Source of the DNA: a virus | Lineage: Duplodnaviria > Heunggongvirae > Uroviricota > Caudoviricetes | Direction: 5' to 3' (one strand) | Virus record (IMG/VR): IMGVR_UViG_2778261347_000018 | Length of the DNA stretch: 4,098 nt | In this document: positions 1 through 4,098 of the stretch, in pieces | Layout: every line of letters starts with the position of its first letter | How positions within the stretch are numbered: position 1 is the first letter of the stretch | Made by a program: the position numbers

Positions 1-3000
1 TGACACTGGGACTGAATGCGCTGACGCTGACGGATGTTACAAAAAATGCAGCGTATGGCGTTGAGATAGAAAGTCTGGTGCTGGAGATAAATGCACCGGC
101 ATCATCATAAAAAGTGAGCCAGTCAAATGGAAGGTATCGTTAAACTCACCGGTAGTGTCAGTGGGTCGTCTGAGACGCCTGCATGAGTTATCAGAGCCAT
201 CAGTAGTTAACTGGTGGCTTTTTTATTGTTGTCAGCTTCCGGATAACGGGAGACGGGGTATGTACCAGATGGAAAAAATCACAACAGGTGTGTCATACAC
301 CACGTCAGCGGTAGGGACGGGATACTGGTTACTGCAACTGCTGGACAAAGTCTCTCCGTCCCAGTGGGTGGCAATAGGTGTACTGGGGAGTCTGCTGTTT
401 GGCCTGCTGACGTATCTGACTAACCTGTATTTCAAAATCAGGGAGGACCGCCGTAAGACGGCGCGGGGAGACTAAAGCGATGAAGAAAAAATACGAACTG
501 GTTGTTAAAGAGATAAATAATTACCCGGATAAGATTGCTGTTACTGTGGCACTTGAAATTGGCGGGCATCCGTCGTTGTTGTTGCCACATGTGGCGATTA
601 GTCTTGACCGTACTGAAGGTGCCACGCTGGAGTTTTACGAAGCTGAGGCGAAAAAGCAGGCGAAGCAGTTTTTCATGGATGTTGCTGCCGGGTTATGTGA
701 AGGGGATGGTCCGTTGCCGGAAAAGCGGCCCATCATTTTAGAGGCGCAGGATGTGTTGATAACCTACAGAGGAAAACTACCGGGAATAATTACTGGTTCT
801 CTGAAGACTCCACCGCTGGCCTGAAGACTTAATATATCCAGGGATTTGAAATCGATAAACCCTGATAAATATCCATGAACGCAAAAATCAGATACGGCCT
901 GTCGGCTGCCGTTCTGGCGCTGATTGCCGCAGGTGCGCCTGCGCCTGAAATCCTCGACCAGTTTCTGGATGAAAAGGAAGGTAACCACACCACAGCATAC
1001 CGTGATGGTGCGGGTATCTGGACCATCTGCCGTGGAGCCACCCGGGTGGATGGTAAGCCTGTTATTCCTGGCATGAAGCTGTCGAAGGAAAAATGCGACC
1101 GGGTTAACGCCATTGAGCGTGATAAGGCGCTGGCATGGGTGGAGAAAAACATCAGAGTGCCACTGACCGAACCCCAGAAAGCGGGGATTGCGTCATTCTG
1201 TCCGTACAACATTGGCCCCGGTAAGTGTTTCCCGTCGACGTTTTACAGACGGATTAATGCAGGAGATCGAAAAGGTGCCTGCGAAGCTATTCGCTGGTGG
1301 ATTAAGGACGGTGGCAGGGACTGCCGTATTCGCTCAAATAACTGTTACGGTCAGGTATCCCGTCGTGACCAGGAGAGCGCGCTGGCGTGCTGGGGAATCG
1401 ACAGATAAGCAGAATATTTTGCTGAAAAATGAGGTTTGCTTACATGGATGGATAACACGAAATCCTGCAAATTGGCAAAATGTAAGTGAATAAAGTCAAA
1501 ACAGTTGTTTAACACTCAGGCACCGTAATGATGCCTTTGTCATTTCTGCGCATCTCACGCGCATCTCACAACACAGAACCTTTCAGGATGACCCTTGAGG
1601 ATACCGGTTTGGCTGTCGGTGCCTTTCTGTGGGCTGGATTCCTGTGAGACAAGGTTCATCACTAAAAGGAAATAACCGATGAATATGATGGCCGTGCCGT
1701 TTCACGGCAACTCTCTTTATGTAGTTAACCATAATGGCGAACCATACGTTCCCATGAAACCTGTCGTTGCGGGGATGGGGCTGGCCTGGCAATCACAGTT
1801 GGCTAAGTTAAGACAGCGTTTTGCGTCAACTATAACGGAAATCGTTATGGTTGCTGAGGATGGGAAACAACGCAATATGGTGTCCATGCCACTTCGAAAA
1901 CTTGCCGGCTGGCTACAAACCATTAATCCCAACAAAGTAAAACCCGAAATCCGCGATAAGGTCATCCGGTATCAGGAAGAGTGCGACGATGTTCTTTACG
2001 AGTACTGGACGAAGGGTTTTGTCGTTAATCCCCGTAAAATGAGCGTGATGGAAGAACTCAACCAGGCTTGTGCTGACATGAAACGGGATAAAAACATTGC
2101 CAGTGTGTTTGCTACCGGGCTGAATGAGTGGAAACAGGTTAAAGCCGCGCATGTATCAAAAATCCGTACGCTGGTAAATGAAGCGAATATGCTGATTGAT
2201 TTTGTCCTGGCTGATACAGGCAAAGGGAAAATAACAAAGGCGGATTGATGGGGTGGCTAATGATATCAGATAAACTCATAACGCTGGTGAAGAGCCTCTG
2301 TGTACTTGTCGGCATTTCATTTTTAGTCATGCTGGTTGCCATTTTCTTTTCCACCGCCTGGCGAGTCCTGACGTTATCGGGACTGGTGGGGTGAAAGAGA
2401 GATGAACCGTGTTCTGTGTGTGGTGATTATTGTCATGGCGGTTGGCTGTGGTGCGCTGTGGCTGGCAACAAACCATTACCGTGACAACGCGCTCACCTAC
2501 AAAGCGCAGCGCGATAAAAAAGCCAGAGAGCTGGAACAGGCGAATGCCACCATTACTGACATGCAGGTGCGCCAGCGTGATGTTGCTGCGCTCGATGCAA
2601 AATACTCGAGGGAATTAGCCGATGCGAGAGCTGAAAATGAAACTCTGCGTGCTGATGTTGCCGCTGGTCGTAAGCGCCTGCGGATCAACGCCACCTGCCC
2701 CGGTACCGTGCGTGAAGCCACCGGCACCTCCGGCGTGGGCAATGATGCCGCCGTCGAACTCTCTCCGGTTGCTGGACGAAACGTTCTCGGTATCAGAGAC
2801 GGAATCATCAGCGACCAGGCAGCATTGAGAATGCTTCAGGAATATATCCGCACTCAGTGTATTAACTAGTATTTTTGTTATTCGGAGAATGCATGAAGAA
2901 ATTATTGGTAACCGTAAAGCCTTTTCAGGGAACAATTCCGTTCCGTATTTTGCAGCGTGGTCGTGTTCTTGTTGAAGGTTCGTTCAGTGGTAAATGTACG

Positions 3001-4098
3001 CAATTACACTCCAGGACCTTTCAGGTGAATGCCACGAATGAAGAGCTAACCGTTGAGTGTACGATGAATGCCGCTAAATGCCGCATGGTATCCGCTGCAT
3101 TACAGCCAGTGTGTTGAGCGACCTTATTATTCATGCGCGGTATTGTCGCCGTATTCCTGCATTAACAGAGACCGCAGCCCGACCGGGAGAATCCTCTGCG
3201 CGAGTGTGCGGGGATAATCAAAAACGATACACACCGGGGTTTACCGCGTTAACGGAGCGCGGCGTTGTCCCCTCATGGTCGCTGGTCCGGTGCGATGGTG
3301 GAAGAAGCCGGATGTTTATCACTATTAATTGATAACACAGAAATGGATTCATTGATTTTCAGCACGTTTTTGTATTCGTATTATTGAACATCTGTTTATT
3401 TTACTTTTAACATATTGATAATAAAAAGAGCTGTAAATCTTTAGATGAGTCGATTTTGTCCGGGGAAGTTCAAATGGATTTTATGCTGACGGTTTCTGGT
3501 GTGGTTATCCTGTCCATTGCTTATACTGCAGATAAATATGGCTGCCATTTGTTATCACGTATTGGCGCTTATTGCTCGTTGATGCTGATTTTCTCGTCGC
3601 TTTTTTTTGAGTAAGTTATATTAATTATAACAAATAATTTTCTGTGTTTTTTCAGGCTATCCCGTCAGACGGGAAGCCTGTACTGCCGGGGGACGAATGG
3701 AAAACTGATGTGTCCGGTAACTGTGTGTTCTGTGAACACCATGTTACTTAATTATGTAATTCATACCCGAACGCTCTGTTGACAGCCTTCTTCTGCAGGC
3801 TTCAATAACCCACGCTGAAAAGTTACCGGAACCTTTATGTTCAAGGGCGATATTGATCTGTTCAATCATGTGATTGGGGAAACGGATATTGCGGGTTGTG
3901 GTTCTGCGGGTCCGGTTTTTCGATGACATATTTATTTCCTTTACTGATTGCCATATGACGGGGATTTTACATGGCTGAGCTTCGTACACTCCAGAGCAGA
4001 ATCAAAACACTGAATACCCGACGGGTGAATATTCTGAAGGGTGAACAGCGTCGTGTCAGTGGCAGTGCACGTGTTTCCCTCAAGCGTCATATCTGGCT

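Follow-up and report, generated by a model that had tools for sequence, protein, structure and literature searches.

The stretch of DNA examined here (the window; 4,098 nucleotides (nt), one strand, from the IMG/VR virus record IMGVR_UViG_2778261347_000018, Caudoviricetes) is 100% identical to lambdoid prophages of Escherichia coli O157:H7 and other Shiga toxin-producing strains. Its subject is a plus-strand open reading frame (ORF) of 74 codons, which runs from an ATG at 2893 to a TGA at 3115–3117 and whose product is listed in RefSeq as a “hypothetical protein” (WP_000735655.1). The ORF begins 23 nt past the stop codon of the i-spanin gene Rz (2402–2869, plus strand; PF03245, E 1.5e-39; “lysis protein” in RefSeq), in which the o-spanin gene Rz1 (2622–2828, plus strand) is embedded, and it is followed by a conserved non-coding element of about 180 nt (3133–3312, plus strand). 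A Shine-Dalgarno motif, GGAG, can be read from the sequence on the plus strand at 2884–2887, 5 nt before the ATG, and the 74-amino-acid (aa) product contains four cysteines, at residues 35, 56, 63, and 74. An earlier note on this DNA had described the ORF with its good Shine-Dalgarno sequence and four cysteines, and had placed it directly after Rz/Rz1 where lambda carries bor on the opposite strand, all of which agrees with what is found.

As the window holds 49 ORFs of at least 30 aa, a 74-codon ORF is unremarkable by itself. What places it above chance is its conservation, the preserved frame, a ratio of non-synonymous to synonymous substitution rates (dN/dS) below 1, and a confidently predicted fold. 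A 241-nt query over the ORF had matches in 1245 of the 5426 complete E. coli genomes searched, and in 1189 the match spanned at least 80% of the query; there are up to six copies per genome, always annotated as “hypothetical protein”. The 66 relatives found in a protein database search come from E. coli, Shigella, and Salmonella, go down to about 42–56% identity, and typically have about 74 aa and the same Met-Lys start. Among the 104 full-length DNA copies compared, a frame of 71–74 codons is open in 103, one of which has an in-frame deletion of three codons, and the single exception is cut short at 64 codons. Frame and start are thus kept in related prophages, a check that the earlier note had proposed. 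The ribosome-binding motif is retained as well, with GGAG or GGGG at an unchanged distance in all of the diverged homologous loci (6/6). Nei-Gojobori dN/dS is 0.23–0.61 for all pairs with dS > 0.3. The ORF is a real gene, a conserved and uncharacterised gene of prophages.

The protein matches PHROG 2571, a family of unknown function (E 2.8e-28, 99.9 bits; residues 1–73 on profile positions 100–172 of 291), and the distant relatives P0127, P0147, and P0100 match the same region of the profile. Only 46 matches came from a profile search across 1.84 billion representative proteins, and a second database search found members in Cedecea, Citrobacter, Enterobacter, Salmonella, Yersinia, Xenorhabdus, and Edwardsiella, which makes this a small family observed in Enterobacterales alone. 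The usual form is a standalone protein of 70–82 aa; a few members carry extra N- or C-terminal regions. The Ravinvirus phage YDC107_1 encodes, between Rz and the terminase gene Nu1, a 198-aa protein with a PHROG 2571 match at E 8.9e-108, which adds an N-terminal region of about 100 residues and a C-terminal tail and does not have the cysteines of the window protein; the latter represents only its core domain of about 74 aa. The presence of the domain in this longer protein, the 291-column length of the PHROG profile, and a dN/dS of about 0.9–1.3 in two close pairs with few changes would fit a decaying remnant, such as the leftover domain of a longer gene, or a spurious ORF. We consider this very improbable, as in several genera the domain normally occurs as a standalone protein with a conserved start, all but one of the copies have an intact frame, dN/dS at depth is well below 1, and the structural model shows a confident and complete fold.

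In the wide family alignment, the conserved positions are F17, Q21, G33, K34, Y43, V45, and A68, and no cysteine is among them. In distant members, C35 gives way to A, T, V, I, or L; C63 and C74 are confined to the subgroup of the window, many close relatives have C-T-E-C where the window reads C-T-Q-L, and five of the DNA copies compared carry a C56Y variant. Because none of the four cysteines is conserved in the family and C56Y variants occur, they do not constitute a functional signature; they are lineage-specific and lie outside the functional core.

Some family members are accompanied by a second small gene. In Salmonella (locus L087, 3765–3971), Citrobacter (L097, 4308–4511), and Edwardsiella (L103, 4276–4491), a gene of about 68 codons belonging to PHROG 4280 (MFV..GW.LGWAVV..PWHLVGVY) lies downstream of the PHROG 2571 member, and the two are separated by the conserved spacer gggtacccaaaggag. 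The E. coli locus L088 (3682–3897) contains a truncated fusion of both genes, and the PHROG 4280 gene is absent from the window. The two-gene module may be the older state, of which the window keeps the first gene only. In the metagenomic protein P0106 (225 aa), the domain is found behind a fragment resembling the lambda J tail-tip protein (PF09327, E 0.0017, below the family cutoff), which could place a member in the slot after J, the position of lom in lambda, or could be a gene-calling artefact. The gene is unmentioned in the literature searched, which included reviews and comparative papers on Shiga toxin (Stx) phages.

The AlphaFold2 model, based on a 26-sequence alignment, is compact and all-beta with six strands and one short helix (mean predicted local distance difference test, pLDDT, 90.6; predicted template modelling score, pTM, 0.77). 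The N-terminus, MKKLLVTVKPFQG, has neither a hydrophobic core nor a lipobox cysteine, the highest Kyte-Doolittle mean over 19 residues is 0.76, and residues 2–8 form a beta strand of the predicted fold; the absence of an export signal, as claimed in the earlier note, is supported by these observations, and no transmembrane segment is found by the same hydropathy measure. Foldseek matches were weak and generic (E at least 0.29, sequence identity 6–17%), the best match of the sequence profile against the PDB had an E of 0.51, and no domain was matched in Pfam or NCBIfam. The PADLOC hidden Markov models for defence systems gave no match for the window protein and a single weak match to ZorA among seven relatives (P0096, E 0.006). 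In the domain, PADLOC, and PDB-profile searches, there was no signal peptide, toxin, or enzyme signature. The likeness to small beta-sandwich modules, including carbohydrate-binding modules (CBM35/6/36), the PA-IIL/LecB lectins, a lambda J domain, and XepA of PBSX, is generic and no evidence of homology; residues for ligand or calcium binding could not be matched in the ORF protein. The product is thus predicted to be a cytoplasmic all-beta sandwich of about 8 kDa with no catalytic signature.

The ORF lies in a variable slot, which extends from the Rz stop codon on the left to the conserved element on the right. The slot is filled by the ORF in the window, in Stx2_EH1846, and in locus L092, and is empty in YYZ-2008 and in the Sakai prophages Sp9, Sp10, and Sp12, where Rz is followed directly by the element. 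In PA2, phage 21, ev243, lambda, and DLP12 of K-12, it holds bor on the minus strand, and relatives carry at least three other cargo genes there, among them a 50-aa ORF in mEp460 and a 183-aa “regulatory protein” in P13374. A census of 80 IMG/VR loci with the element, of which 74 could be scored, found the slot empty (n = 23), occupied by this ORF (n = 14) or bor (n = 10), or filled by a gene like gp58 of mEp460 (about 10), a gene like ORF55 of P13374 (about 9), or other content (about 9). The idea that this is the slot in which lambdoid phages carry morons such as bor is borne out, and its borders are now defined. A scan of IMG/VR with the family alignment returned only near-identical copies, and the diverged contexts described below come from contigs encoding relatives.

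The gene bor confers serum resistance, and Bor is an outer-membrane lipoprotein expressed in lysogens. The bor/iss genes of lambda and its relatives share the slot with the ORF and are, like it, facultative, being present or absent among closely related prophages. The two differ in most other respects. BLASTP against a Bor protein gave no alignment at E ≤ 100, in agreement with the earlier note, and there is no sequence similarity between the ORF and Bor/Iss. Whereas bor is opposite to the late genes and Bor carries a lipoprotein signal, the ORF is on the plus strand, with no lipoprotein signal, lipobox, or predicted promoter of its own, and its product is predicted to be cytoplasmic and expressed late rather than located in the outer membrane of lysogens.

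In the Juhala and Hendrix sense, a moron is an extra gene with its own promoter, its own terminator, and a deviant composition that is expressed from the prophage. The ORF separates Rz from the element, two parts that adjoin directly in some relatives, as seen from the empty and ORF-containing loci of the census, and its base composition is unlike that of its flanks (G+C 0.45 against 0.54 in the upstream 500 nt; 0.39–0.49 for the ORF, 0.53–0.64 for Rz, and 0.51–0.56 for the element). Consensus scans found no plus-strand sigma-70 promoter-like site in 2300–2893 and no plus-strand factor-independent terminator-like site just downstream, in 3118–3700. Since two of the features of a moron are present and two were not found by these scans, we call the ORF a moron-like passenger of the late operon and not a moron. 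The proposal of a candidate moron of unknown function therefore stands as far as facultative presence, deviant G+C, and the lack of a known function are concerned, but not with regard to a promoter or terminator, the strand, and the coupling to Rz in relatives.

Several observations tie the ORF to late transcription. It has the same orientation as the lysis and packaging genes in every Rz-linked locus examined, and the 40 nt before the ATG, with the final codons of Rz and the GGAG, move together with it. In Stx2_EH1846 (L003), L092, and L093, Rz is nine codons longer and its TGA overlaps the ATG of the ORF by 4 nt (ATGA), an arrangement that is typical of translational coupling. Distant members are found after the lysis genes in Citrobacter, inside the lysis cassette in Edwardsiella, and between Q and the holin gene in Salmonella enterica subsp. 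diarizonae, there behind three terminator-like hairpins. No promoter was predicted upstream of the members in Citrobacter (L097) and S. diarizonae (L101), the two that were scanned. Some distant relatives have a terminator-like site after the gene or gene pair. In L101 (3958–3979 and 4309–4321), and likewise in L102, also from S. diarizonae, two similar terminator-like hairpins, aggctacgctaatgcgtggcctttttt and aaggcgtggccttttt, bracket the member. Late expression of the ORF is suggested by this co-orientation, the ATGA coupling, the lack of a predicted promoter or terminator, and the late-operon location of relatives.

A similar arrangement is known from late-operon cargo of the stx and nanS-p type downstream of pR′, which is likewise co-oriented with the late genes; no promoter was detected for the ORF, and the Salmonella member between Q and the holin gene occupies the same slot as stx, behind terminator-like hairpins. 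The ORF differs from the known late cargo in that there is no homology and in having no signal peptide, toxin, or enzyme signature. By analogy, Q-dependent read-through as for stx and nanS-p cargo is most likely how the ORF would be expressed.

These observations also bear on the view that the ORF is a classical moron like bor, with its own promoter active in the repressed prophage and a product that benefits the lysogen. The shared slot, presence or absence among near-identical prophages, a G+C below that of the flanks, and its commonness in pathogenic E. coli all speak for such a role, and promoter scans are weak evidence against one. We nevertheless find it unlikely, as the ORF is co-oriented with the late operon where bor is opposite, no promoter-like site precedes it and no terminator follows it, the ATGA overlap in relatives means that a promoter could only lie inside Rz, and relatives are positioned behind terminators of the late operon and have no promoter predicted. 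Moreover, the envelope is where many known lysogenic-conversion factors, Bor included, exert their effect, whereas the ORF protein has no export signal.

The tight linkage to Rz could instead indicate an accessory lysis factor acting alongside the spanins, which might for instance adjust Rz/Rz1 function or the timing of lysis. This appears about as doubtful as the moron, given that the ORF is absent from YYZ-2008 and from Sakai Sp9, Sp10, and Sp12, in which the first two thirds of Rz are nearly identical, that relatives lie 2 kb upstream of the holin gene or in an early region, and that family members are found beside unrelated types of holin and endolysin. Holins, Rz, and Rz1 act in or at the envelope, whereas the ORF protein has no membrane segment; neither a muralytic domain nor a lipobox is found, and the ORF is not present wherever the lysis cassette is. 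The match to XepA is no better than those to dozens of unrelated sandwiches.

Within the E. coli and Salmonella group, the ORF is linked to three terminase types (Nu1/GpA, HNH with Terminase_4, and HNH with Terminase_2) and follows Rz, or a 3′ remnant of Rz, in each of these contexts; because of this, it is not tied to one virion. Its place just upstream of the packaging genes could suggest a virion-associated decoration or accessory structural protein. Such proteins normally match one capsid lattice, and the association with three different terminase and head modules, the absence of the ORF from many phages with the same head genes, and the generic fold match make this a still less probable role than that of a moron or lysis factor.

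The explanation we favour, with a probability of roughly 0.55, is that the ORF is a real but dispensable accessory gene of PHROG 2571, carried as a passenger of the late operon and encoding a cytoplasmic binding module. The ORF would most likely be transcribed by read-through from Rz in the Q-dependent, antiterminated late operon and translated from its own GGAG, in some relatives with coupling to Rz through ATGA, so that the protein would be made together with the lysis proteins. It would then most likely act late in infection by binding a partner, either protein or glycan, rather than by catalysis. A number of observations weigh against this explanation. Between the copies in the window (2893–3117) and in L092 (3501–3725), which share 81% amino-acid identity, dN/dS is 1.26 with 16 non-synonymous and 4 synonymous changes, and in part of the family this could reflect either a relaxation of constraint or diversifying selection. 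The term binding module derives from the fold class only, the structural matches being weak and generic, and the scans for promoters and terminators are crude matching to consensus sequences. One Yersinia member is located in an early-type region outside the late operon. Finally, about a quarter of the scored related loci have no gene in the slot, which means that any benefit of a gene there is conditional.

A broader and more speculative extension, to which we give a low probability, is that PHROG 2571, sometimes with its PHROG 4280 partner of about 68 aa, represents a new class of small, late-expressed phage effectors that bind a target of the host or of a competitor at lysis, such as a defence component, an envelope glycan, or a receptor. 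They would reside in a cassette-exchange site set by a conserved element, structured as RNA or DNA, which is present on both sides of the Ravinvirus member.

This element, the right border of the slot, is far more widespread than the ORF, being found in 398 phage records compared with 28, and more conserved, with about 94–95% identity between the window and Stx2_EH1846 as against 76% amino-acid identity for the ORF. A partial copy occurs in lambda (46885–46981) and in K-12 DLP12 between borD and ybcV. In YDC107_1 (L002), two direct copies (3468–3638 and 4416–4595) flank the gene for the 198-aa PHROG 2571 protein, which suggests that the element marks cassette boundaries or promotes exchange. 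An Rfam scan of the window gave nothing at E ≤ 1, and no counterpart of the element was found in the literature searched. The element was also considered as a small protein gene, as in the annotation “Rz-like spanin” in PA2, and this was rejected as the frame shifts between copies, with insertions or deletions of 1, 9, and 17 nt.

RNAalifold applied to 27 diverse copies of the element predicted four helices with 31 pairs; 98.7% of the cells are paired, and in four of the pairs both partners vary. In 500 shuffles, not one of the five observed structure measures was reached, and sliding the structures by 1–3 columns reduced pairing to only 29–60%. The central hairpin has been replaced while remaining complementary (CCGCG/CGCGG, CUGUG/CGCAG, and CUCAU/AUGGG). 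Many positions alternate between U-G, C-G, and U-A on the plus strand, which speaks for an RNA with the polarity of the late transcript. The element is thus probably structured as RNA of that polarity, and the support is moderate, since the structure was derived from the same sequences.

The left border of the slot is mosaic. The first two thirds of Rz are nearly identical to Rz of Sakai Sp10 and YYZ-2008, and the C-terminal third, from about 2740, belongs to another Rz lineage; block identities to the YYZ-2008 Rz are 58–60 of 60 up to 2701 and then drop to 27 of 60. The C-terminal third resembles Rz of the Salmonella prophage L087, which itself carries the ORF, and other ORF carriers keep the Sp10-type end of Rz plus nine extra codons.

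Upstream of Rz, the window encodes, all on the plus strand, a class II holin (260–475; PF04971), a DUF1327/YdfR protein (480–824), a lysozyme (875–1408), and a P22-type antirepressor (1679–2248). Between the antirepressor gene and Rz lies an ORF for a hydrophobic membrane protein of 49 aa (2245–2394, plus strand), which has a TTG start overlapping the ant stop codon, belongs to PHROG 4906 of unknown function, and is a “hypothetical protein” in RefSeq. Downstream of the element, a YlcI/YnfO (DUF3950) gene is located on the minus strand (3744–3929), and an HNH endonuclease gene starts at about 3971 on the plus strand.

Small RNAs (sRNAs) have been mapped near this site in related prophages. The sRNA HnrS corresponds to EcOnc10-12 (PMC13502914), and the 2014 EcOnc coordinates were taken from Table S2 of PMC4104026. 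The published coordinates of HnrS/EcOnc11 fall inside the element, and identity of the two was rejected after these coordinates had been corrected by about +140 nt, calibrated with the Rfam match of AgvB. With this correction, HnrS of Sakai Sp10 (L106, about 16945–17010, minus strand) maps immediately beyond the right end of the element, and its terminator reads ctgctgtgactccaacacggcagttttttt. HnrS is absent from the window and present in some prophages with an identical ORF (L019 and L060). The Pas sRNAs and the AgvB/AsxR anti-sRNAs were likewise rejected for this site, being located upstream of the holin gene instead.

In place of the HnrS region, the window has an AT-rich island (3330–3650, G+C 0.31–0.40), which carries a plus-strand ORF for a hydrophobic protein of 46 aa (3474–3614; RefSeq WP_000347013.1) with two hydrophobic stretches and a promoter-like site upstream (3356–3384). 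The 46-aa protein has no PHROG or NCBIfam match. On account of its composition and the promoter-like site, the island resembles a classical moron more closely than the 74-codon ORF does.

Taken alone, the gene is one more hypothetical phage protein and an ordinary prophage result, the value of which is mainly in the defined slot and the neighbouring element; the latter is the more unusual by-product. For lambdoid phages, the borders of a recombination hot spot are now defined, this being the same exchange slot as that of bor, and a widespread element that appears to be structured as RNA is exposed beside the HnrS-encoding site of related prophages. The gene is present in about one-fifth of complete E. 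coli genomes, among them many Shiga-toxin strains, O157:H7 and others, as well as some of sequence type 131 (ST131), and its placement as a late-operon passenger points to a protein made after induction, not in the resting lysogen.

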